DNA of 64,000 nucleotides from a phage, in the sequence record NC_042307.1. One strand, written 5' to 3'. The notes beneath the pieces were generated by a model, which saw only the letters and a list, made by a program, of their open reading frames with translations, did not search any database and was not told where the DNA came from. Below, in pieces: positions 1,240 through 42,483 of the stretch. A program made the position numbers and the translations under genes. Numbering within the stretch: position 1 is the first letter of the stretch; every line of letters starts with the position of its first letter.

Positions 1240-1656
1240 TGTGCAAATCCGACATGTGTTGAGATGTGCGAATCCGATGAAATTTTTATGACTTCGATGA
1301 GAGGGTGTGTGATTGTATGGGTTTGTGGAGAAGATGAGAGAGCGAGAGAAATTTTGGGACTAGAAGGAAGTGGGCGCAGGATTGGTGCGGAGCACCTGAT
1401 TTGCGGGGATTTTGGGGAATAGTTGAGATAATTTGGGGAGATTTGAGATAGGTGCAGAAAAAGTAAAATTTTATTAGCAAAATGGGGCAAAATAGCTTGA
1501 CAAGTGAAAATTCTTGTGGCCCTAAAAACTCAGGCAATCATGGGCCTTCGGCCCGAAATAATGCTGCTATTTTCAAGAGATTATATGTTCCTAAAAACTT
1601 AGGCGTTTGTGCAAATCCGACCATAAATTTCTAGAAACACAATGTGCAAATCCGAC
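1240..1656. repeat. Dispersed 13-mer 'GTGCAAATCCGAC' copies (1240, 1266 variant, 1609, 1644) in ORF-poor region
   Basis: Motif read directly; related 'CAAATTCGAC' copies at 544-627 and one more copy at 3660. Confidence 0.5.
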
Positions 1657-1697
1657 AGTAAAATCCAGAAATGTGTTTTCAAAAAATGTCTCCTAGA

Positions 1698-1726
1698 AAT
1701 AACCGCCCTCCCTATAACCGCCCTAT
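1698..1726. repeat. 29-bp direct repeat copy 2
   Basis: Identical to 1184-1212. Confidence 0.6.
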
Positions 1727-2190
1727 ATTAACCGCCTATTGCTAGAGTTTCTAGGAACATGAAAACCGCCTGAGTTGGCTAGAGAAACAGATTTAAAGTT
1801 TAATGTAAACTCTAGAGTTAGTGCTCAACTATTCCTAGAAACTTAGGAGTCTAGAAGAAAGTGTTGTGCCATCCTAGCAGATGAGCGGCAACAAGTGTAT
1901 CATCTTGAACACAGATATTGCCTTTAAATATTTATCAGTTATTTAAAAGTTAATATACCCCCATTTCATGAGAGTTAGCCCCTCTAGGCGCGTGCGATTT
2001 GATACATCCTCCTAAGTCTCGGTGTGGAAGAACAATTGACGAGAACCTGCAAACAGAACCGTCATCAAGTGTTTTCCTACGAGGAATGATGTAAATCTAC
2101 GGCCTAGAGGTAAAAACAAGTTGATGTTTTTAATCTATGAGATTATTATAACATGCATTTGGATATCTGTCAAGAATTTTTCGTTAACGT

Positions 2191-2916
2191 TTATACATCG
2201 TGATTGACTTTGAGTATGACTCCCTTCGATGCCATGAAAAGGAATGTTGCTAGGTAAGATGACTCGGAATTTAGCGCAGAATAATCTACACTTCCTCTAG
2301 GTCTCGTATCCTGCATCGTATCAAGAATTGTTGAGATGTCAAACTTAACAGACTTCGCAACTTTTCTAGCCTGTTCAGGATCACGTAAGATTTCGAAATG
2401 TGCAGCATCTAGAATAGGGTTAGATGTTGTTGAGTCGTCAACTATACTTAGATGAACCTGCGCAAGTATAGATACAATTCCTAGCTTTAATTCAGATAGA
2501 GAAGAATAAGGTGGTTCTACTTTCTTTGTAAGTCTAGGAAGATGATCATACTTACATTGCTTAGGTGGAATTATCAAAATCTTAGGATAACATTCTAAGG
2601 CTGTCTTTGCACTTCCTTCTTTAAAATGTGGGAGTTCTTTATCCGCAAAGACATGGAATGAATCTGCTGAAAATCCTTTAATAGTAGGGTCAACAGTTTG
2701 AATCAGACGACGTATACTAATATATGAAGGAGCTAATGTAACTTCTTCCGCATCCTTATTATATTTAGGCTGTCCACTAGCATTAATGTACGCAGGATAA
2801 AACTCTGCACAAAACGCTACTGCATGTGTCTCTAGTTCATTAAGTTGAGAAACACATTTTCCATTACAAGCTCTAGCTAATTTAATAATCTCTGCTAAAT
2901 TCTTTTTAATACTCAT
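2191..2916 (-). CDS. hypothetical protein (241 aa)
   Basis: Long ORF, 4-bp overlap with next gene (operon-like). Confidence 0.5.
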   Translation of the reverse strand: MSIKKNLAEIIKLARACNGKCVSQLNELETHAVAFCAEFYPAYINASGQPKYNKDAEEVTLAPSYISIRRLIQTVDPTIKGFSADSFHVFADKELPHFKEGSAKTALECYPKILIIPPKQCKYDHLPRLTKKVEPPYSSLSELKLGIVSILAQVHLSIVDDSTTSNPILDAAHFEILRDPEQARKVAKSVKFDISTILDTMQDTRPRGSVDYSALNSESSYLATFLFMASKGVILKVNHDV

Positions 2917-3401
2917 ATGTCATCCGCCTGTCCACTAGCTGTTGCTGCTAATCTTCTTTCACGTTTCAAGATATTATTAATAATATCTTTTGCATCAGAT
3001 TTATTTTTGGCTGTTTTCTTTATTAATTCAAATAAGAATCTTGGGTTAGGAACTTCAAACTCTTCCTCTCCTAAACATATAGTATACTCTTTTAAGTGTA
3101 GCTGAGTATATTTAGTAAGAGGGAAAGATTCTAGTATTCCCGTACTATCAACAGGAATATGTTCTTTCATAGGGATCACAGCGCATTTCTGTTCTTTCAA
3201 GAAATTCAGGAATCCAATAGTTTGGACATCTTCTGAATCATAGGAGACTTTTCTGATAGTCTCAATAAGCGTAATAGCCTCAAAGGTTAATACAGTTAAA
3301 TAACGTCGTACGGTAGAACCATCGGTTATTTGTAGAAAGTAAACCGACGAATCCTCTGTTGGTTCAAACAGTATATTAGCAAACTTAAATGCTTCTTTCA
3401 T
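2913..3401 (-). CDS. hypothetical protein (162 aa)
   Basis: ORF translationally coupled to neighbours. Confidence 0.5.
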   Translation of the reverse strand: MKEAFKFANILFEPTEDSSVYFLQITDGSTVRRYLTVLTFEAITLIETIRKVSYDSEDVQTIGFLNFLKEQKCAVIPMKEHIPVDSTGILESFPLTKYTQLHLKEYTICLGEEEFEVPNPRFLFELIKKTAKNKSDAKDIINNILKRERRLAATASGQADDI

Positions 3402-4015
3402 TAACTACCTCTCTTATCTTCGTTAAGAGCAGCTCCCAGTGTTTCCATAATTGCATCTTCTAGACTTCCATGCTTACTAGGATTGCTTAAGTGAGTAACG
3501 TAGATGGGATTCCTAGAAACTCCAGAGTCCACAGGCGCTACGCTTTTCATGTCAGATTCAAAAGCTTCTTGAGTATGTTTCAACTGTGCAGATGGTCCAT
3601 AATCTTCACCAACTCGATATGAGGAATTATTTTCTATGACGCCACCACACGGAACATTGTGCAAATCCGACGTTGTTTTAGGACTGTTCCACATTGTAAT
3701 TGGCCCTGACTGCCACGGATCCCGAATAGTTACTGGAGTACTAGGGCGGTTCACCTCAGTCTTCACGAGTTTATAACCAGCATCTATTAATGCATTAATA
3801 AGGTTATCAGCTGGAATGCGAGCCTTGCCAAAAATCTTACGAGCGTTGTTGAGCTTACCTTCAAAATCTTTACATGCTTTAATATTAGTGTGTGCAAAGG
3901 TTAGCTTCATAGATTTGAATTGTACAGTGGCAGTTAAATCTTTGAAGCTATAATCCCACGTATTCAGTTCATGATCTGGTACTACTTGAATAGATTGTTG
4001 TGCATATAAAGTCAT
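3401..4015 (-). CDS. hypothetical protein (204 aa)
   Basis: ORF; start overlaps stop of upstream gene. Confidence 0.5.
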   Translation of the reverse strand: MTLYAQQSIQVVPDHELNTWDYSFKDLTATVQFKSMKLTFAHTNIKACKDFEGKLNNARKIFGKARIPADNLINALIDAGYKLVKTEVNRPSTPVTIRDPWQSGPITMWNSPKTTSDLHNVPCGGVIENNSSYRVGEDYGPSAQLKHTQEAFESDMKSVAPVDSGVSRNPIYVTHLSNPSKHGSLEDAIMETLGAALNEDKRGS

Positions 4016-4200
4016 TATTTATTCTCCAGTTTGTCTAACAGCTTATGAGCTGCTAGATTATATTGTTTAAGTTCACGGTTAAGGATTTGGTTCTCACACT
4101 TTAACTCTAAATTCTTATTATTAAGAATATTACAGATTAGTAGAAGTGCTAGTATAACTAGCAGGGAACCTACAAGCATTAAAAGAAAAAGAGTTTCCAT
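4015..4200 (-). CDS. small membrane protein (TM helix + coiled coil)
   Basis: Hydrophobic 'LFLLMLVGSLLVILALLLI' then charged heptad-like tail. Confidence 0.4.
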   Translation of the reverse strand: METLFLLMLVGSLLVILALLLICNILNNKNLELKCENQILNRELKQYNLAAHKLLDKLENK

Positions 4201-4445
4201 TATTTAATTCCCATGTAACGTTTGAGATATGTGATGAAGTCTTCTGTTGTATGTTTTAGGCTACCCTGAACCACAAACAACTTTAAAGCCTCACGCTGTA
4301 ATTTAAGAGCAGCTAACTCACCACGTAATTTTGTTAAATCTTCCGCTAGTTCCCTAGCTCTGCGCATAATAGCAAATGATACAAATGTTACAATAAATAA
4401 CATAACTGCTAAAATAATTACTATGATCTCCATATTAACATCCAA
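4200..4445 (-). CDS. small membrane protein (TM + coiled coil)
   Basis: Hydrophobic N-terminus 'IIVIILAVMLFIVTFVSFAI'. Confidence 0.4.
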   Translation of the reverse strand: MDVNMEIIVIILAVMLFIVTFVSFAIMRRARELAEDLTKLRGELAALKLQREALKLFVVQGSLKHTTEDFITYLKRYMGIK

Positions 4446-4704
4446 CTCTTATTATATATTTGGGCATGTTCTACTAATTCATTTATTGATGTAGAATTAT
4501 CGTAGATACCCTCTAGTAAACGTTTTCTGTCAAATTTATCAACTAAATACTCTGCGCCATTTATTACTACCCTATACAGCTTCTGGAACTAAGGGGTGTT
4601 TGTTTGGTATTGGGCGACTGCTTAAGTTTATTTCGTTTTTACCCCATTCTGTTTTAAATAGTTTGTTACTAAGTGCTGCTAGTGGGTTTGACCATACAAT
4701 ATAG

Positions 4705-5151
4705 CTACTCACTATTTATCTCCATTCTTAGCTTTGAAAACTTATTATACCAAACTATATGATTATCGTCAATTACAAATTTATGGTAACATGCTGGTAC
4801 GGTATAAGTTCCATAATCAGTGACACGCTGCACAACCTTGTGTGCGCACAGTCGACATCCATGCCCTTCTAAATGAGATCTAGCAGTTTGCCAGTAATAA
4901 CCCTTATGGTCTGGACAATAGATCTCGACTTGCTGTTGCATTGTCTTATAATTTACACGCTCATATCCGAAGAAAGCTCCATGAGCTGCAATGGCTTTCT
5001 TGATAAATATAAGGTTTAGTGCTTCTTGTTGAAAGTCGGGGTGTAGCTGCTTAATCTTAGTTCTATTAATAGACCCATCCGATTTGATGAATCTATTTAT
5101 TGGAAAGTTATTAGCTTCCTCGATTAATAATTCATTTACTTTCTCTCTCAT
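4705..5151 (-). CDS. zinc-ribbon protein ('CPDHKGYYW...GHGCRLC')
   Basis: Start ATG 5151 chosen to abut stop of upstream ORF; Cys/His motif like the repeats of the T5orf172-type proteins. Confidence 0.4.
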   Translation of the reverse strand: MREKVNELLIEEANNFPINRFIKSDGSINRTKIKQLHPDFQQEALNLIFIKKAIAAHGAFFGYERVNYKTMQQQVEIYCPDHKGYYWQTARSHLEGHGCRLCAHKVVQRVTDYGTYTVPACYHKFVIDDNHIVWYNKFSKLRMEINSE

Positions 5152-20885: not shown

Positions 20886-20922
20886 ACAGAAAAACCCCAG
20901 ACTACTTATTCAATAGCTGGGG
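20886..20922 (-). terminator. Rho-independent terminator
   Basis: Stem CCCCAG/CTGGGG, 'tttttctgt' in minus sense. Confidence 0.55.
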
Positions 20923-20933
20923 TTTGTTGTTAA

Positions 20934-21248
20934 TCACAGATCGGGGAGTTCATATTCGAAACAGCCTGAGCTAGTTCCTTCTCCGAATCCTACGAAGCCA
21001 TCAAATTCATCATTTGAAATATCCGTAATCATTGCTTCCATTTTCCTAATCTCCGAGATTTTCATGCCTGCTTTACTATTCTTATAATACTTGCGAGGAT
21101 TCCCGCACATCCAACAAGAACAGATACAAGGAGTAGTAGTGATAATACCTAACCGTTTAGGGCTTTCTTCATGTGGGAAGACTGTCCAATACTTCTTGCG
21201 GTTGTTCTTTACACGTTGCCGGTGATGACGTCTTAATGCTCGATCCAC
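20934..21248 (-). CDS. hypothetical protein (104 aa)
   Basis: ORF. Confidence 0.4.
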   Translation of the reverse strand: MDRALRRHHRQRVKNNRKKYWTVFPHEESPKRLGIITTTPCICSCWMCGNPRKYYKNSKAGMKISEIRKMEAMITDISNDEFDGFVGFGEGTSSGCFEYELPDL

Positions 21249-21329
21249 ACATTTCTCCTAAAACTTGGGAGATAAATGGAGTTTGCTCGACTACCTTACG
21301 TAGTTCGTAGAAACCGTATCCAAGCCCCA

Positions 21330-21698
21330 TTACATCGCCTGAGTAAATGTACGACTAATAACGTCGTTCTGCTGTTCACGCGTCAGTGAGTTAAAACGTA
21401 CAGCATACCCTGAAACACGGATAGTTAATTGAGGGTATTTTTCAGGATGTTTCTGTGCATCCAAAAGCTGATCACGACTTAACACATTGACATTTAGGTG
21501 CTGACCTCCCTCGATTTGAGGAACTACTTCCACCTTGACTTCACGGAAGGATTCGGGGTCAAAATGTGGTGTGATACCTTCTAGATCCTCAACCAGAACT
21601 TTTTGTTTAAGTTCACCATCTTTAGAGTACAGTTGAATAATCTGATTATCATGAACAAGATTAATTACGCCAGACTTAAGATTTTGATATGCTTTCAT
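21330..21698 (-). CDS. GrcA/YfiD-like autonomous glycyl-radical cofactor protein
   Basis: C-terminal '[11 protein letters not shown]...[23 protein letters not shown]'; ATG 21698 with GGAGAG RBS. Confidence 0.65.
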
Positions 21699-21883
21699 TA
21701 GCTCTCCTGTTTGGTAGTTAGTAGTGGATTTGAACCACTGTAGTCGCTCCGTATGAAGGAGGTGCATAACCACTCTGCCAACTAACTATTATGTTTTACT
21801 AGACTAAGTAAGTATTCTTTGTACTCTTTAGACCAATTAGCTTTTTTAAACTTTCCTGGACGCATAGTCTTAATTCCTAAATT

Positions 21884-21960
21884 TGGTACTCCGGGAGGGA
21901 TTTAAACCCCCGATCTCTCGGTTATCAGCCGAGTGCTTTAGATCGCTAAGCTACCGAAGT
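21884..21960 (-). tRNA. tRNA-Ile (anticodon GAU)
   Basis: Hand-folded cloverleaf; CCA encoded. Confidence 0.6.
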
Positions 21961-21975
21961 ATTAAAATATTTACA

Positions 21976-22266
21976 TCACACACTTTCTAAGTAAGAAGTA
22001 TAATGGAATTTAGTTTCTCCAGTCTTATCTACTTCTACCTCAGTTCGTGGTACTTGACGAACTACACCATGAATCATCTTATAGCGAATGCCTTTAGCTG
22101 GTTCATGATCTTTTGGAAATACTTGTTTAACCGTTACTACTTTATATCCTTCACGCGGTGTTAACACTACTACTTGATCACCCTCTTTGATTTTCCAGGA
22201 GGGTGGAAATTCATAGGTATATCTTTGACCACCAGTTTGGAATACTACAGAAAGATAACGTTTCAT
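21976..22266 (-). CDS. hypothetical protein (96 aa)
   Basis: ORF with upstream promoter-like sequence. Confidence 0.4.
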   Translation of the reverse strand: MKRYLSVVFQTGGQRYTYEFPPSWKIKEGDQVVVLTPREGYKVVTVKQVFPKDHEPAKGIRYKMIHGVVRQVPRTEVEVDKTGETKFHYTSYLESV

Positions 22267-22340
22267 TTGGTTTCCCTCTCATTAATTTATATAATTATTA
22301 TAACAAGAAATAAGAGAGAATGCAAATGAATTTTTAAATT

Positions 22341-22415
22341 TGGTGCTCCCACCAGGAATCGAACCCGGTTCAGATGCTTACAAGGCAACTGCATCGCCAG
22401 CAATGCTTTAGGAGC
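22341..22415 (-). tRNA. tRNA-Thr (anticodon UGU), one mismatch in anticodon stem
   Basis: Hand-folded; CCA encoded. Confidence 0.5.
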
Positions 22416-22435
22416 GATGATCCCGTTATTTCAAC

Positions 22436-22600
22436 GGGATTTCTTTTTCAATAACAGGAGACTTATCAGTCATAACTGTCATAGCCAACTGCTGAAGAAA
22501 CTCGAAAGTTAGCTTTAAACGTTCTTCACCTAATTCAATCTCAACGTATTTCTTTTGCTTGTCAACCTTTAATTTTAGGTTATCAGCCATCTTCTGATTC
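22436..22600 (-). CDS. small hypothetical protein (54 aa, below track cutoff)
   Basis: ATG 22600 to TAA 22436; 'MADNLKLKVDKQKKYVEIEL...'. Confidence 0.3.
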
Positions 22601-22804
22601 TCGTTGCTCGGCTACTGCTAGCCAGTCTGGTAAAAGAAACTTAGTACGAAACTCTTCATAAGATTCTTCTGGATAAAAGCTAAAACCTCCTTTCTCATCA
22701 TTCAAGATAACAGAGCCGTCAGTTTGTTCATACGCTCGATATGTTTCTCCAATAATGATAACTCGCTTATCAGTACTTTTATTACGAAACTCAAAAACGT
22801 GCAT
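22583..22804 (-). CDS. hypothetical protein (73 aa)
   Basis: ORF. Confidence 0.35.
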   Translation of the reverse strand: MHVFEFRNKSTDKRVIIIGETYRAYEQTDGSVILNDEKGGFSFYPEESYEEFRTKFLLPDWLAVAEQRESEDG

Positions 22805-22818
22805 TGTGTTTCCTTATT

Positions 22819-22893
22819 TGGTGCGGGATACGAGAGTCGAACTCGTGTTTACTGGTTGGAAGCCAGTTATTCTAGCCACTGAACTAATCACGC
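22819..22893 (-). tRNA. tRNA-Gly (anticodon UCC)
   Basis: Hand-folded; CCA encoded. Confidence 0.6.
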
Positions 22894-22900
22894 ATTAATT

Positions 22901-22984
22901 TGGCTGGAGAAGGAGGATTCGAACCTACGTACCTTCCGGTTATGAGCCGGGTGCTCATACCATATGGGCTTGAGAACCAGAATT
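22901..22984 (-). tRNA. tRNA-like element, anticodon loop 'CUCAUAA' (CAU), acceptor stem noncanonical
   Basis: T-arm and CCA present; 5' acceptor does not pair. Confidence 0.3.
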
Positions 22985-23073
22985 TGGCGGAAGAAGTGGG
23001 AATCGAACCCACAAGGCTATATTTCAAACCGACAGATTAGCAATCTGCTGCAAAACCGTTCTGCTATTTTTCC
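22985..23073 (-). tRNA. tRNA-Ser (anticodon GCU), class II with long variable arm
   Basis: Hand-folded; CCA encoded. Confidence 0.55.
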
Positions 23074-23093
23074 GGATTTATAAATATATTATA

Positions 23094-23612
23094 TTAGAAA
23101 TTTAGCTTCATGGCAAGAAAATTTTTCAAGTTTTCGGTAGACATCTCATCCACATCTATAGGAGAAACAAACCCATTTAATTGTTTAGCAAACTTTTCGC
23201 CAGCAGGATCATTATCCCCAACAGCTACCAATTTAAAAGGTAGTAATTTCAATTGCTTTAATAGCGGTTTTCCTGGAGAAGAACCCAACATTGCTAGAGC
23301 AGGATACCCAGCATTATGTAATGCTACAGCCTTAAATACAGATTCAGCAATTAATACTACTTTTTCATCCCCATTGAGAGTTTCTAGTCCCCATACACAC
23401 TGTGTAGTAGAATAAGTAAAATATCTAGCTTCAAAGGGGCACTTACCATGACCTTTTGGAGCAGAAGGATTATAAGTCTGATAGCCTCTCAACATTCCAG
23501 AGAAGTCATACAATGGGACTGTTAGCCATCCTTCTGGGCTTAACCAGCAGTGATATTTATCTGTATCAAACCCTCTAGATAAGAGATGTTCTGTTAGTTC
23601 ATCAATAGTCAT
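23094..23612 (-). CDS. Toprim-like domain protein
   Basis: 'VVLIAESVFKAVA...VAVGDNDPAGEKFA'; ATG 23612 with GAGAGG RBS. Confidence 0.4.
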   Translation of the reverse strand: MTIDELTEHLLSRGFDTDKYHCWLSPEGWLTVPLYDFSGMLRGYQTYNPSAPKGHGKCPFEARYFTYSTTQCVWGLETLNGDEKVVLIAESVFKAVALHNAGYPALAMLGSSPGKPLLKQLKLLPFKLVAVGDNDPAGEKFAKQLNGFVSPIDVDEMSTENLKNFLAMKLNF

Positions 23613-23831
23613 ACTAGATTCCTCTCTCAAATTTATAAATATATTATGCAGAGAATTTAGCATTCAAGCAATTGAATTTTTTAACTTTTTAGAGGAAAAT
23701 CACAGGATGCTTAAGGGTAGCAGGTAAGTGGGTAGACCCCAAAATTGTTATCCCCACTTGATTTTCAATGTGATATAGTGTAAAGTATTTGTCATAGCTG
23801 AGTGACCAAAGAGACACACTTATCCTCTACC

Positions 23832-23873
23832 TTAAAACAGAAAAGCCCTGCGCTCTCCAGGGAACACAGGGCT
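23832..23873 (-). terminator. Rho-independent terminator
   Basis: Stem AGCCCTG/CAGGGCT, 'tttctgtttt' in minus sense. Confidence 0.55.
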
Positions 23874-23897
23874 TACTTCGAATATTACGTGTGGGAA

Positions 23898-24845
23898 TTA
23901 CTTGTTACGCATATCCATAATCATCTGGCCATCGTAACCAGTGCCAACTACTGTTTGAGGTACACCGCCTTGATATTTCTGAGCACGAATCATTTCAACT
24001 TCTAGTTGTTTCCAGCGAATCATCTCAGGAGTAATAGTACGTTGCAGAGCGGCGTTAGCTTCGGCTTCCTTCTTAGCTGCGTACAGTTTAGCATCTGCAT
24101 CACGTTCGTTTGCAATAGCTTGGTTGTTACGAGCTTCACGATCTGCTTCTGCTTGTTTAACCTTCTGCTGTGCTTCTTGTTCAACACGAGCCAACTCAGC
24201 TTTCGCAGCATTAACTTGTTCCTCACGAACTTTGGTATTCTGTACCTGTTCCATGATTACAGGCGGCAAAGTAATATCCTGAAGGAACACTTGCTTAACT
24301 GTGTAACCATAAGGGCGTGCATACTCTTCAACTTCCTGTTGAATTGCGGTTTGTAATTGAGCCTGGATTTTAGCATCAAACAAATCTTGTGCTTTAGGAA
24401 CAGACTTACCGAACTCACGAATAGTGGACAGTAATTTTTCAGTTACATATTTGTCTAATGCTTGATCCTGGGTACCTGCGTTAATACGGTTAATCGGTGC
24501 CTTAGAACCATCAAACTGCAACATAACAGTCAGGTCAACAGTGGATTTAAACTTATCCTGACTAGGAACCTGAAGTTTATCTAATTTTACAGCAATGTCT
24601 TTTGTACTAAAAGTATCGAAAGATGCAAATGGGTTTACAAGATGAAAACCAGGTAATACAGGATTAGGGTCTACTTTACCCAGAAATGTTTGGGTTTTAA
24701 CCGTACCATCAGAAACAATAGTATATGAATTAAAAGCTAGGATTAAACCTGCTAAACCAACTACAGCACCAATACCCCAACGTTTAATAGTGCGGATTAC
24801 TTTTTGCTCAGAAGTCAGTTCTTTCATATTTTTAGTATTAAACAT
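23898..24845 (-). CDS. SPFH/band-7 (prohibitin/HflC-like) membrane protein
   Basis: N-terminal TM, long Ala/Glu/Gln-rich coiled coil; AAGGA RBS. Confidence 0.55.
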   Translation of the reverse strand: MFNTKNMKELTSEQKVIRTIKRWGIGAVVGLAGLILAFNSYTIVSDGTVKTQTFLGKVDPNPVLPGFHLVNPFASFDTFSTKDIAVKLDKLQVPSQDKFKSTVDLTVMLQFDGSKAPINRINAGTQDQALDKYVTEKLLSTIREFGKSVPKAQDLFDAKIQAQLQTAIQQEVEEYARPYGYTVKQVFLQDITLPPVIMEQVQNTKVREEQVNAAKAELARVEQEAQQKVKQAEADREARNNQAIANERDADAKLYAAKKEAEANAALQRTITPEMIRWKQLEVEMIRAQKYQGGVPQTVVGTGYDGQMIMDMRNK

Positions 24846-24879
24846 ATATTTCCTTTGTTTTAGTTACAGTTAATAAAAT

Positions 24880-24954
24880 TGGCCGAGGTGACAGGATTCG
24901 AACCTGCATAAAGGAATTTAGAAGACTCCTGCCTCTCCCTTAGACTACACCCCG
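24880..24954 (-). tRNA. tRNA-Arg (anticodon UCU)
   Basis: Hand-folded; CCA encoded. Confidence 0.55.
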
Positions 24955-36082: not shown

Positions 36083-38410
36083 TTATAAGGTACAGCCACC
36101 TGAAGAACATCCTGTAGTTTCTCCAGCTCCTCCACCATTCGCAGTGTTAAAGTTAGCATAATACCAGGTTTTTATACCATACTTAACCGCAGTCATAAAG
36201 TCACGAACTACTACTGGGCCAGGGATGATTTCATTCTCGAATTTAGAGTAATCATAATACATCTGGAAACTTGATGACTGACTCAAGAATTTTTGGTAAA
36301 CGGCGTTCCATTTGATCCACTCAGTGCGATCAATATCATAAGCTAGTTTATAGCTCATTAACGTTTCCCAGTCGGTTGCACCTGGAGCAATTGCAATTAC
36401 TTTATTTACTGCACTACCTTTGATAGATACAATCTTACGAGGTGGTTCGATAGAGTTAGTAACACCTAACAGAACAGAAGAACTTTCTCCCGGCATCTGA
36501 GCAGTCAGAACAGAGTTACGCATACCATATTTCAGAATATCTGCACGCAGAGACTCCCAATCCATTTCTAGACCTACGGATACCAGTTCATCAACAGTTT
36601 TCTTGTACGTGTCGATTACCAGAGTTCCTTTAGATGGTTTAGTACGATCGAACCATTCACATGCACCTTGCTCTTTGGCTAGACGTACAGAGGCTTTATG
36701 CAGGAAGTAGGACAATTTTTCAGCTTCACGATGAATCCAGTTACGAGCCTCAATACCTTCATAAGCCAGACCTTCTGCTGCCATTGCACCTGCTGCGTTC
36801 ATCAGACCAATACCAACGTTACGACGTTTCTTAGCCGTATATTCCATAGTTGGGAACGGGTAATCCTGAATTTCAATGATGGTATCAACAAATTTCAGAA
36901 GAATATAGCAAGTCTTTTCCCACTCAGCCAGAGATTCCATGCGTCCTAATACAACACCACCTAAGTTACACAGAGATACTTCCCCAATATCCTCCGGCTT
37001 CATTTGATCGAGTTGTTCTTTTGTTTTATACAGTTCCGTGATATGATGGAACGGGCGTGTAGGCTGAGTAATTTCAACACAAAGGTTGGTCATACGAATC
37101 GGGTCAAGGAAGTTACCATGACGGTTAGATTCACCAATGTGATGAGCATACATACGCCCTGTTTCCATACGGATACGTAACCAAGTATCTAGGATTTCTT
37201 TTGCAGAGATTCTAGGAGCTGCTGGAATTGTTTTTCCTTCGTGGTCGGTCTTTGTAAGAGATGCCACACGTTTCTCCGCTGCCACGTAGATTTCTTCAAA
37301 CTTAGCCTCATCTTCACCATAAAACGCTTCATGAACTTCTGGTGCGTAGAAGTAGGACATTAGCGTAATATCTTCGTTTTTCAGGTAACGTTTTAACAGA
37401 AGGTTGTTAAAGCTCAGAGAATAATCCATCTTATCGATTTTATTCTCGTCTGTAGCACGTTGCTGCTTAACCTGCATCAACTGAATGATTTCAGGATCGA
37501 AGTATGGATAAGACACAGTAGCAGAACCGCCACGGGTTTGCTGAGTGTTAGCTTTTACTGAACGGTCAATGTGTCGATAATATGGCAGTTTTCCGGAATG
37601 CGGGAATGCCCCATTTCGCACCGGATCAGCAATTGATCGGCTTTCAAGATGATACCCGATTCCCGCTCTGGCTGCGACCATTTTGAAGACGATGTGCTCG
37701 GCTGTGTCGATTGAATCCAACGTGTCAGTGGAATCCACGAGGCAGCAACTAGCAAATCCACGGTCACTAGAACGCAAACCAACCAGTGGCGGCGTAGGAA
37801 CGTTGATTTTGTGGAGCGACATTGCATTGTAGAGATCGATTGCATCTAGAATTGTCCAGTTGGGTTGAGATAACATCGCCATTGCCATGCCCATATAGGC
37901 AAATTGCGGGGTTTCGTAAATTTCACCAGTGGCTATATTACGACGGGAATATTTATCAAAGAACTGTTTCAGTCCACCACTAGTAAAAAGACGGTCACGA
38001 TCGTGGTCTATAACCTGATTCAGAGCTTCAAATTGCTCATCGGTAATCCATGCACTCATGTCTTCCCATGCACCTACACTAACCATATGATCGTGGAAGA
38101 AGCGTAGAGAAGGTGGTTCGAAGGAATCATAAAGGCGTTTACGCATCTGCGCAAGACGTAATTCCTTTGCTGGCACGTCGTATGCTGGATTATCTTTAAT
38201 AAGACTTTCGGCAGCTTTAATTAACGCATCCATCAGAGTATCGGAATCTACAACCCCTTTAGGCAGAGTTTTTTGAGCAGCCATAGTAATGGCAGACCAA
38301 CTTACATCAACTGTTTTGCAACCATACTCTGCCCAACCATTGAGTTTTTCAGGAGCAAAGTCTTCTACAGTACCGTCACGTTTAATTACTTTTTCAATGC
38401 GATGGCTCAT
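36083..38410 (-). CDS. nrdA: ribonucleotide reductase large subunit NrdA
   Basis: ATP-cone N-terminus, 'CNLG', C-terminal Cys pair; ATG 38410 with AAGGA RBS. Confidence 0.8.
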   Translation of the reverse strand: MSHRIEKVIKRDGTVEDFAPEKLNGWAEYGCKTVDVSWSAITMAAQKTLPKGVVDSDTLMDALIKAAESLIKDNPAYDVPAKELRLAQMRKRLYDSFEPPSLRFFHDHMVSVGAWEDMSAWITDEQFEALNQVIDHDRDRLFTSGGLKQFFDKYSRRNIATGEIYETPQFAYMGMAMAMLSQPNWTILDAIDLYNAMSLHKINVPTPPLVGLRSSDRGFASCCLVDSTDTLDSIDTAEHIVFKMVAARAGIGYHLESRSIADPVRNGAFPHSGKLPYYRHIDRSVKANTQQTRGGSATVSYPYFDPEIIQLMQVKQQRATDENKIDKMDYSLSFNNLLLKRYLKNEDITLMSYFYAPEVHEAFYGEDEAKFEEIYVAAEKRVASLTKTDHEGKTIPAAPRISAKEILDTWLRIRMETGRMYAHHIGESNRHGNFLDPIRMTNLCVEITQPTRPFHHITELYKTKEQLDQMKPEDIGEVSLCNLGGVVLGRMESLAEWEKTCYILLKFVDTIIEIQDYPFPTMEYTAKKRRNVGIGLMNAAGAMAAEGLAYEGIEARNWIHREAEKLSYFLHKASVRLAKEQGACEWFDRTKPSKGTLVIDTYKKTVDELVSVGLEMDWESLRADILKYGMRNSVLTAQMPGESSSVLLGVTNSIEPPRKIVSIKGSAVNKVIAIAPGATDWETLMSYKLAYDIDRTEWIKWNAVYQKFLSQSSSFQMYYDYSKFENEIIPGPVVVRDFMTAVKYGIKTWYYANFNTANGGGAGETTGCSSGGCTL

Positions 38411-38554
38411 TTGGTTTTCCTTTTTATAGTTATCAGGATTTAGGAAATAGTTTACTTTATTCTCAGTCATTTGGCAAATAAAATTTTCTGATAGAAAAGG
38501 CCCGAGTATTTTCATACCCAGGCCTCCTGTGTTGTCAGTCTAGTTTTTGGCCAC

Positions 38555-39800: not shown

Positions 39801-40670
39801 GTGGAATGCCCGAAAAAATTAACTCAAGAAGAAGTAGATAAATGCCTAGCCGAGCGTGGTTTTACTATGGTGGATAAGCCATATCAAAATTCTAGGTATA
39901 GGCATACGTATCAGTGTGAATACGGTCACCAATGGACAGCTAAATTTGACGCTATTAGGAATGGAAAGACCAATTGTCCTACTTGCTCTATTAGTAGCCG
40001 TAAACTAGATATTGATAAAATTAATACTATATTACAGGACAGAGGTATTACATTGTTGAACGGCTATAAAAATAGTGCCGATATAAATACTAAATTTAGG
40101 TGTGTTTGTGGTCATGAGTGGGCTACTACACTTAATAGTATAATTAATAGAGGTAGTGGCTGCCCATCTTGTGCTGCTAATAAACAGAAACTTAGTGTTA
40201 ATACTATAAATGATCGTCTTGCTGCCAGAAATATCAGAATAGTGGGTGAGTATAGTAATGCGAATACTAAGACCGCCTTTCTTTGTGGTGCAGGGCATAG
40301 GTGGGAAGCTACTCCAGGGTCTGTATTAAGGGGGAACGGTTGTCCTTACTGTAGTTATAGAGATTTAGAAAGTACTAGGATATATGTTATGTATAGCCCC
40401 TCACATGGGGTTAAAATAGGTAGGTCTAACAATCCAGAGCGTAGACTTCTACATATTAGATCTAGTAGCCACCTTATTGATTTGGAAATAATTAAAGTAT
40501 TTGAAATTGGGGAATATAGTAGTGCAGTTCGAATAGAAAAATTAGCCCATAACTACTTTAAAGAGCAGAATTGCCAGTACAAAGATTTTGACGGCGCTAC
40601 GGAATTCTTCAATATTGAACCAAAAGTAGCTATAAAGTTTATCGAGGAAATAATCAATGACAGAGAATGA
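39801..40670 (+). CDS. T5orf172/GIY-YIG-like endonuclease with four zinc-ribbon repeats (GTG start)
   Basis: Repeated 'C.C.H.W....GCP.C'; 'RIYVMYSPSHGVKIGRS'. Confidence 0.55.
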   Translation: MECPKKLTQEEVDKCLAERGFTMVDKPYQNSRYRHTYQCEYGHQWTAKFDAIRNGKTNCPTCSISSRKLDIDKINTILQDRGITLLNGYKNSADINTKFRCVCGHEWATTLNSIINRGSGCPSCAANKQKLSVNTINDRLAARNIRIVGEYSNANTKTAFLCGAGHRWEATPGSVLRGNGCPYCSYRDLESTRIYVMYSPSHGVKIGRSNNPERRLLHIRSSSHLIDLEIIKVFEIGEYSSAVRIEKLAHNYFKEQNCQYKDFDGATEFFNIEPKVAIKFIEEIINDRE

Positions 40671-42483
40671 ATTAATTGAGAATTGCAAAGGTCTGCTCAC
40701 TCTAACTGCGGATAAGGACTTACAGCATAATAATGCTAATAAGCCTAGTGAGATGTTCCATACTCAAAGAGACTTATTGGCCGGAGAAATCAACAAATAT
40801 TTAGTATCGCAGGAATTACCCAAACATCTATTAGACGCCCATAATCTAGGTAAGATACACATTCATGATATGGATTACAGGGCGCAGGGGTACACTAACT
40901 GTTGCTTAGTAGACCTTGGTGGCATGCTGAAGAATGGTACTAAAATTGGTAATGCAAATATTGAAACTCCTAAATCCATAACTACTGCATGTGCAATCAC
41001 TGCTCAGATTATTGCCCAAGTATCTGGTGCTCAGTATGGTGGCACCTCTATTGATCGTATCGACGAGGTTCTAGCCCCGTATGTCAGAAAGTCTTACAAT
41101 AAACATCTGGGTCGTGGGCTACGTTGGCTCAAGGATGAAAGAAAAGCTGCTGTGTATGCTACTGAGCTTACTGAAAAAGAGTGTTATGATGCATTCCAAG
41201 CTCTAGAGTATGAAACTAATTCATTATTTAACTCTAATGGGCAGACCCCTTTTGTTACGCTTGGCTTTGGATTAGGTCAGGAGTGGGAGGAAAGGATGAT
41301 TCAGAAAGCCATCCTCCAAAATCGTATTAAAGGTTTAGGTGCTGCTGAGTCAACCCCTATCTTCCCTAAACTAGTATTCTCAGTTAAAGAAGGGTTAAAT
41401 AAAAATCCAGGCGATCCTAACTACGATATAAAACAGCTAGCACTTGAGTGTTCTGCTACCCGTATGTACCCAGACTATTTAAGCTATGAGAAAGTTGTAG
41501 CTGTTACTGGTGATTTTAAAGCCCCTATGGGTTGTCGTAGCTTTTTATCTGCTATCCCCTCCGGAGAAATTGCAGGGCGCAATAATTTAGGTGTAGTGTC
41601 TATTAATCTACCTATGGTTGCTGCTGAGGCAGATGGGGTTTTTGAAGATTTCTGGGATATTCTGGACAAATATGTGGATGAGGCTTTTGAAGCTCATGAT
41701 TTTTTCTTGGATAGACTTAAGAAAGTGAAGGCTAAACAAGCCCCTATTCTTTATATGCACGGTGGTTTTGGTGTGCGTTTAGATGGGGAAGAGTATGTAT
41801 GGCCTATTTTTGAGGGTAGATCTTCTGTATCTCTTGGATACATTGGGGTCTATGAGATGTGCCAAATAATGTTTAGTCTACCACAAACCCATAGGGATTG
41901 TATTGAATTTACAGAAGAAGTTCTTACTCACCTAAAAAATCGTTGCGAAGTTAAAGCTAATGAGACTAATCTTGGATTTAGCTTATACGCTACCCCTAGT
42001 GAGTCTCTATGTAATCGTTTTAATAAATTACTAGAACGTAGATTCCCAGAGTATTCTTGGTTAACAGACAAAGGCTATCTTACTAATAGTCACCATTTGG
42101 ACGTAAGAGAGAAGGTAGCCCCAGATACTAAATTTGAGTACGAAGCTCATTTTACCAAAATAGCTAATGGTGGTAATATATCGTTTGTGGAATTACCACA
42201 AATGAAAAAATTCCATAAAGCTCTTGAATACGTAGTAGATAAGGGACTAGAGTGTAGCCATTATATCGGTGTTAATATACCGATTGACGAGTGTTTCAAC
42301 TGTGGATATATGGGTGAATCTATTGCCTCTGAGCGTGGGTTTGTATGTCCAAGTTGTGGGTCTGAAGAAATAGAGGTTACACGTAGGGTTTGCGGGTACC
42401 TGGGATCCCCGGGCAGTAGGCCTTTCAATTCTGGGAAACAAAAAGAAGTGCTTGGTAGAGTAAAACACTTAAATCTTAAGTAA
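40657..42483 (+). CDS. nrdD: anaerobic ribonucleoside-triphosphate reductase NrdD
   Basis: Glycyl radical 'RRVCGYLG', zinc site 'CFNCG...CPSCG'. Confidence 0.8.
   Translation: MTENELIENCKGLLTLTADKDLQHNNANKPSEMFHTQRDLLAGEINKYLVSQELPKHLLDAHNLGKIHIHDMDYRAQGYTNCCLVDLGGMLKNGTKIGNANIETPKSITTACAITAQIIAQVSGAQYGGTSIDRIDEVLAPYVRKSYNKHLGRGLRWLKDERKAAVYATELTEKECYDAFQALEYETNSLFNSNGQTPFVTLGFGLGQEWEERMIQKAILQNRIKGLGAAESTPIFPKLVFSVKEGLNKNPGDPNYDIKQLALECSATRMYPDYLSYEKVVAVTGDFKAPMGCRSFLSAIPSGEIAGRNNLGVVSINLPMVAAEADGVFEDFWDILDKYVDEAFEAHDFFLDRLKKVKAKQAPILYMHGGFGVRLDGEEYVWPIFEGRSSVSLGYIGVYEMCQIMFSLPQTHRDCIEFTEEVLTHLKNRCEVKANETNLGFSLYATPSESLCNRFNKLLERRFPEYSWLTDKGYLTNSHHLDVREKVAPDTKFEYEAHFTKIANGGNISFVELPQMKKFHKALEYVVDKGLECSHYIGVNIPIDECFNCGYMGESIASERGFVCPSCGSEEIEVTRRVCGYLGSPGSRPFNSGKQKEVLGRVKHLNLK

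Follow-up and report, generated by a model that had tools for sequence, protein, structure and literature searches.

The window, a stretch of 64,000 nucleotides from phage record NC_042307.1, carries on its minus strand an intact open reading frame at 21330..21698 (ATG at 21698, TAA at 21332..21330) whose 122-residue product is supported by its sequence as a GrcA/YfiD-like autonomous glycyl-radical module. The gene is an already annotated, well-conserved member of a characterised family. We consider it likely that this grcA-like gene is expressed early and that its product, dependent on host PflA, keeps host pyruvate formate-lyase (PFL) working as a spare part.

A stand-alone PFL-type glycyl-radical domain

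The Pfam Gly_radical model matched the product with E=4.7e-18 and 66.1 bits (gathering cut-off 22.2), far beyond chance, which bears out the initial annotation of a 122-aa glycyl-radical open reading frame at 21330..21698. The PFL-type glycyl-radical domain occupies the last 62 residues (~61-122) and has its radical glycine, Gly97, within RVSGYAV; residues 1-60 make up a phage-type N-terminal half. The domain is homologous to residues ~693-759 of PFL (81% identity to PflB over 62 aa), and the 19-residue stretch that holds Gly97 is identical in PflB and GrcA. The product is a small stand-alone protein of the ~14 kDa class without a catalytic barrel; a tRNA-Met gene lies upstream of its gene and a separate open reading frame downstream. 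phrog_1209 matched the protein over its full length (6e-48). A PDB search returned 34 hits, headed by E. coli YfiD/GrcA (6OWR, 1e-30) and including E. coli PFL (2e-27); the further hits were other PFL-like glycyl radical enzymes.

E. coli YfiD and T4 Y06I are presented as the two validated spare-part proteins by Andorfer et al. (JBC 2021, PMC8683613, citing Wagner et al. 2001). According to this paper, the PFL activating enzyme provides both with a glycyl radical, and they revive PFL that oxygen has cleaved at Gly734. The N-terminal half of the spare part helps binding to cleaved PFL (PMC8683613). Y06I is the product of T4 vs.6, which carries the RefSeq name 'autonomous glycyl radical cofactor GrcA'. 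T4 Vs.6 has 120 residues against 122 for the window protein, both begin MKAYQ, and the two are 53% identical over their full length, with 40% identity in the N-terminal half and 80% in the C-terminal 60 residues. They share the PFL-type C-terminal domain with RVSGYAV and the family phrog_1209, and vs.6 is likewise an early-region gene of a phage that also carries nrdAB and nrdD.

E. coli GrcA (YfiD, 6OWR) is also a small autonomous protein, with an identical radical-glycine loop and a C-terminal domain ~80% identical to that of the window protein. The N-terminal ~60 residues of the latter can be aligned with small gaps to both T4 Vs.6 and E. coli GrcA. The glycyl-radical domain at the C-terminus of host PflB and TdcE (PflB ~698-759) is 81% identical over 62 residues and is expected to have the same fold; these enzymes differ in having a ~700-residue catalytic barrel, which the phage protein lacks. 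The initial annotation had described the C-terminus as near-identical to that of E. coli GrcA. The resemblance is real, at 79-82% over the last 60-62 residues (82% to GrcA over the C-terminal 60), but 'near-identical' overstates it. Nor is it particular to GrcA, as PflB and TdcE are equally close over the same residues and identity to GrcA falls to 26% in the N-terminal 60 residues. The two genes also differ in their control: E. coli grcA is under host stress regulation, whereas the window gene is phage-encoded and co-transcribed with tRNAs.

The NCBIfam GrcA model TIGR04365 matched the window protein with E=1.3e-35 and 122.4 bits, which misses the equivalog cut-off of 170 bits; E. coli GrcA scores 234. 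Because the experimentally validated T4 Vs.6 also falls under the cut-off, at 151.1 bits, this threshold therefore marks off bacterial GrcA from its phage relatives, and not functional from non-functional members.

An old phage gene under strong constraint

Relative to T5.056, its ortholog in T5, the grcA-like gene shows 19 synonymous and 4 non-synonymous differences, giving a dN/dS of 0.049. Over the last 60 codons, the T5-type gene has 71-73% nucleotide identity to E. coli grcA, pflB, and tdcE. Because third positions are only ~42% identical to these host genes, near saturation, while the protein stays ~80% identical, the gene is, on these sequence comparisons, an old phage lineage under strong constraint and not a recently captured host fragment.

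T4 vs.6 has a different history. Over its last 180 nt it matches E. coli grcA at 97.8% of positions (96.7% of third positions), as against 71% and saturated third positions in the T5-type gene. This near-identity marks T4 vs.6 as a mosaic and points to recent gene conversion with host grcA in its 3' half. The idea of a recently captured host fragment, which nucleotide and third-position identity both led us to reject for the T5 lineage, thus holds true for the 3' half of T4 vs.6. The N-terminal halves of T4 vs.6 (23558..23920 of the T4 locus) and E. coli grcA (3067..3450 of the E. coli locus) are only ~30% identical in protein.

The transcription unit and its neighbours

The grcA-like gene belongs to a minus-strand unit that runs, in order, promoter, 96-aa open reading frame, tRNA-Ile, tRNA-Met, grcA-like gene, 104-aa open reading frame, and hairpin terminator. 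The candidate promoter (22297..22326, minus strand; sigma-70-like, TTTGCA-18-TATAAT with an extended -10 TG) is predicted from its match to the consensus and from its position, which is that of the T5 early promoter P11. The first gene of the unit, at 21976..22266 (minus strand), encodes the 96-aa ortholog of T5.058 (phrog_4760). It is followed on the same strand by tRNA-Ile(GAU) at 21884..21960 and tRNA-Met(CAU) at 21712..21787, the latter 13 nt 5' of the grcA-like gene, in the order found in T5 (tRNA-Met, then T5.056). A Shine-Dalgarno-like AGGAGA (21703..21708, minus strand), read from ccaaacAGGAGAgctaATG, is placed 4-5 nt 5' of the grcA-like ATG. Co-transcribed 3' of the grcA-like gene is the 104-aa open reading frame (20934..21248, minus strand), the ortholog of T5.055 (phrog_4499). 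The unit closes with a Rho-independent terminator hairpin, AAACCCCAG...CTGGGGTTTTT, at 20886..20925 (minus strand), near-identical to the terminator annotated 3' of T5.055 in T5.

The 104-aa product, with its four-cysteine motif PCICSCWMCGNPRK, is probably a small metal-binding protein. Its homologs occur in T5-like phages, in jumbo phages of Erwinia and Serratia, and in phages of Achromobacter, Rhizobium, Acinetobacter, and Psychrobacter; as a comparison of genus lists only, Erwinia, Serratia, Achromobacter, and Psychrobacter are absent from the ten commonest host genera of the GrcA search. A further open reading frame of 53 aa (21169..21330, minus strand) has its start at the grcA-like stop codon and shares 80 nt, in a different frame, with the 104-aa open reading frame. 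It has a match to phrog_31464 (3.9e-42) and is listed as a gene in PQ002169.1 though not in T5; of the two overlapping calls, one may be an artefact of annotation.

This phage has a far smaller tRNA island than T5. ARAGORN found only six tRNA genes in the window (21712..24954; Met, Ile, Thr, Gly, Ser, and Arg), as compared with about 24 tRNAs and several stable RNAs in the corresponding region of T5.

Absence of a phage-encoded activase

Searches for an NrdG or PflA activase by tblastn, phmmer, and a profile HMM found none in the window, in the complete genome of its relative PQ002169.1, or in the complete genome of T5. The HMM was built from T4 NrdG, E. coli NrdG, and E. coli PflA, and its positive control, T4 NrdG, scored 8e-85; the best E-values from the activase searches were 0.13 in the window, 0.005 in PQ002169.1, and 0.75 in T5. 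Among the 25 best families listed from Pfam and NCBIfam for the 37 window open reading frames with at least three cysteines, no radical-SAM or activase family was present, and the local activase HMM with its positive control covers weak matches beyond these 25. The proposal that no activase is encoded is thus upheld by negative radical-SAM, NrdG, and PflA searches in the window, PQ002169.1, and T5.

The accompanying statement, that no open reading frame has a CxxxCxxC motif, is literally wrong. A six-frame scan of frames of at least 40 codons gave a single match in the window, 'CICSCWMC' in the 104-aa open reading frame at 20934..21248. We rejected this protein as a minimal activase: it is too small, belongs to phrog_4499, and shows no match to a Pfam family and no radical-SAM signal.

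The counts of phage records agree with the absence of an activase. Among phage records, 2,910 have an NrdD and 2,280 an NrdG; the difference of 630 is near the ~535 T5-like records with NrdD. Many phages contain only nrdD together with nrdAB, and T5, SPC35, and EPS7 are named for a phoH-containing layout (Dwivedi et al. 2013, PMC3653736). The window shares with these phages the layout nrdA-phoH-nrdD without nrdG, and nothing substantive sets it apart from them; its NrdD allele shares only ~60% identity with the one common among T5-type phages. Lack of nrdG in T5-like phages is on record, and the arrangement is not unusual. The initial annotation had regarded it as unconventional, a view at odds with the existing domain annotation of T5.056 and with the description of nrdD-only phages in 2013 (PMC3653736).

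A link that had been suggested between the spare part and the missing nrdG also fails. T4, unlike the T5-type phages, encodes its own NrdG, and it carries vs.6 as well. In Aeromonas phage PX29, the cluster nrdD-nrdG-vs.6-nrdC-nrdH (1359..4947 of the PX29 locus) holds both, with vs.6 overlapping the end of nrdG by 23 nt. Because T4 and PX29 have vs.6 plus nrdG, the spare part is not a substitute for an activase.

No activase is encoded by the phage, and therefore any activation must come from host enzymes. The GrcA-like protein would then depend on host PflA and NrdD on host NrdG; reliance on host activases in general had been anticipated from the sequence. A literature search for activation of phage NrdD by host NrdG returned nothing usable. 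Work by Young and co-workers from 1994 is said to have found that T4 NrdD depends on the NrdG of T4 itself, and in that case a host NrdG could not be presumed to activate a phage NrdD.

The phage NrdD

The window also encodes the catalytic subunit of a class III ribonucleotide reductase (nrdD, 40657..42483, plus strand; 608 aa), which has no ATP-cone and is not followed by nrdG. The gene, recognised earlier by its 'RVCGYLG' motif, proved to be intact. The product matches Pfam NRDD over its full length (1.6e-157) and is 52.7% identical to E. coli NrdD. It carries RRVCGYLGS with the radical site Gly580, the zinc-site cysteines Cys546/549/564/567, and both catalytic cysteines, as Cys82 and Cys293 align with E. 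coli Cys175 and Cys384. Over the 32 residues around the radical glycine, counted by eye on the alignment, the window protein is 81% identical to E. coli NrdD, and the protein of T4, a phage with an NrdG, 56%. Such an E. coli-like glycyl loop is in line with reliance on host NrdG, and is suggestive only.

This nrdD allele is rare, with only ~50 phage records at 95% identity or more. Some ~485 T5-like records, T5 included, have an NrdD allele of only 60-80% identity, although their genomes elsewhere reach 90-95% identity. Directly before nrdD, and overlapping its start by 14 nt, lies a gene for a 289-aa endonuclease-like protein (39801..40670, plus strand) with a T5orf172/MUG113 nuclease domain and treble-clef zinc fingers, where T5 has a promoter instead. 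These observations suggest an nrdD allele replacement driven by a homing endonuclease. NrdA has 810 aa in the window (36083..38515, minus strand) as compared with 1,100 aa in PQ002169.1 (6138..9440 of the PQ002169.1 locus), which suggests an intein or other insertion in the nrdA gene of PQ002169.1.

Proposed repair of host PFL and competing explanations

A replacement module for oxygen-damaged host PFL, one of the roles put forward in the initial annotation, is likely because the homologous T4 Y06I experimentally rescues oxygen-cleaved PFL, as related in a later paper (Wagner et al. 2001 via PMC8683613). The grcA-like gene would be transcribed early along with the phage tRNAs. Host PflA would recognise the RVSGYAV loop, which is identical here to the loop of host PflB, and place a radical on Gly97 by hydrogen abstraction; as has been suggested for YfiD, binding to damaged PflB would probably come first. 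Once activated, the C-terminal domain of 62 residues would dock into a PflB molecule whose own domain oxygen has cut off at Gly734, with the N-terminal half aiding binding to the damaged enzyme, and would restore the conversion of pyruvate to acetyl-CoA and formate. With the phage copy, PflB already present in the cell would stay active under microaerobic gut conditions.

In infections by T5-type phages, host DNA is broken down and host expression ceases, in agreement with the A1 annotation of the T5 record. The infected cell would then be unable to make new PflB or GrcA, which offers a simple reason for a phage-carried copy. Against PFL repair stand the TIGR04365 score below the cut-off, a shortfall that T4 Vs.6 shares, and the low identity of the N-terminal half to E. 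coli GrcA (26%) and T4 Vs.6 (40%), because of which binding could differ.

The partner could be host TdcE (2-ketobutyrate formate-lyase), instead of or besides PflB. The last 62 residues are 81% identical to TdcE and 81% to PflB, and T5.056 is marginally nearer to TdcE (82%, versus 79% to PflB). These differences are within noise; PflB is far more abundant than TdcE and is the validated partner of GrcA, and we judge TdcE an improbable partner. We give very little credence to a decoy or modulator that soaks up host PflA, or binds PflB or TdcE in intact or damaged form, and so alters the course of host fermentation, say through a reduced flux of formate or acetyl-CoA or an end to futile PFL re-activation. 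An N-terminal half that differs from that of host GrcA (26% identity) would suit such a protein, and the perfectly conserved loop recognised by PflA is what a competitive substrate would also need. Yet constraint extends to the whole 62-residue domain, not the loop alone, with ~80% identity to PflB despite saturated synonymous sites. A decoy is the less fitting because constraint of this extent fits a part that works inside the PflB barrel. The T4 homolog, moreover, restores PFL activity and does not inhibit it (PMC8683613).

The initial annotation had also allowed that the module could replace the damaged domain of the phage's own NrdD. As a spare part for NrdD, the protein would replace a cleaved domain or relay a radical, compensating for the missing NrdG. 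The window does have nrdD and no nrdG, and the PX29 homolog adjoins both genes. We rejected this role on a direct BLASTP comparison and the PDB search, and hold it to be extremely improbable. The domain is of PFL type (RVSGYAV) and shows no detectable similarity to the window NrdD (BLASTP E=16), and no NrdD chain is among the 34 PDB hits; T4 NrdD structures exist in the PDB. The C-terminus of NrdD has a different loop, RRVCGYLG, and a zinc ribbon with a four-cysteine site that the grcA-like protein lacks, and the spare part and NrdG, both held by T4 and PX29, are not alternatives. We know of no radical transfer between proteins described for glycyl radical enzymes. It is no more credible that the gene is a non-functional remnant, the captured 3' end of a host pflB, tdcE, or grcA in the tRNA region. 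That region is highly mosaic in T5-like phages, and some GenBank records label the gene 'pyruvate formate-lyase' or '2-ketobutyrate formate-lyase'. A remnant is refuted by the pattern of conservation: by the dN/dS of 0.049, by the intact 122-aa open reading frame with a ribosome-binding site in more than 400 T5-like genomes, by the nucleotide identity to host genes of only 71-73%, and by full-length homology to T4 Vs.6 that includes the N-terminal half, which is missing from PflB.

Repair of host PFL would probably bring a further benefit in a continued supply of formate, the reductant of the E. coli/T4-type class III ribonucleotide reductase; phage NrdD would in turn need activation by host NrdG. 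Formate is given as the reductant of most class III ribonucleotide reductases characterized to date, that of E. coli included, in PMC4493059, which cites Mulliez 1995. The benefit to NrdD is suggested because formate is the class III reductant and because of the PX29 cluster, which is the only neighbourhood evidence found that ties the spare part to anaerobic ribonucleotide reduction. The formate link draws on a single gene neighbourhood and on the joint occurrence of the genes in two families of phages. A simple scheme in which PFL repair feeds NrdD is weakened because oxygen that damages PFL would also damage NrdD. That anaerobic dNTP supply in T5-type phages is split between phage and host, with phage GrcA sustaining PFL-derived formate for phage NrdD, is in our view possible but doubtful. 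If it were true, the phage would bring the GrcA-type protein and NrdD and depend on pre-existing host PflA and NrdG, and the spare part would belong functionally to a nucleotide-reduction module and would not be a general helper of energy metabolism.

Distribution and naming

The window comes from a T5-like siphovirus (Demerecviridae). By megablast it is a mosaic with 90-95% identity to many Escherichia and Salmonella T5-like phages, and Salmonella phage vB_Sen_SG_WM_RUS_R2 (PQ002169.1) encodes a GrcA-like protein and an NrdD with 100% identity to those of the window. A tblastn search with the GrcA-like protein found homologs in 1,585 phage records. About 440 of these, at 80% identity or more, are T5-like phages; some 1,000 others, with 50-60% identity over the full length, are T4-like phages of Escherichia, Klebsiella, Shigella, Salmonella, and Aeromonas.

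The T5 ortholog, T5.056 (NC_005859), has 122 aa with four amino-acid differences and lies directly after tRNA-Met in the early tRNA region. Its record labels it a 'putative acetyltransferase-related protein' and notes a match to InterPro domain IPR001150, which we take to be the glycine-radical domain. Besides the two formate-lyase names, other records use 'hypothetical protein' or, for hundreds of relatives, names such as 'glycyl radical cofactor' and 'autonomous glycyl radical cofactor'. Both 'pyruvate formate-lyase' and 'acetyltransferase-related protein' misname the protein, which, having no ~700-residue catalytic barrel, could not act alone as a formate-lyase. Many T5-like records thus mislabel the gene, for which GrcA/Y06I-like autonomous glycyl radical cofactor is the proper name.

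As phage GrcA-type proteins have been known since the 2001 work on T4 Y06I, the gene carries little weight as a discovery. Literature searches for work on it in the T5 family found nothing in open-access papers. The T5 lineage is an old, independently evolving member of the family, known here by its sequence. It would be well suited to studies of why lytic phages that infect facultative anaerobes would repair a host fermentation enzyme, and of whether such repair ties to formate-dependent anaerobic ribonucleotide reduction.

Within the Demerecviridae, Providencia phage PR1 has a 'radical cofactor' gene (1698..2189 of the PR1 locus) annotated as 163 aa. Its product shares the C-terminal glycyl-radical domain, here nearer to E. 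coli GrcA (87%), and has an unrelated N-terminal region. Unless the annotated start of the PR1 gene is wrong, a second N-terminal architecture therefore exists within T5-like phages.
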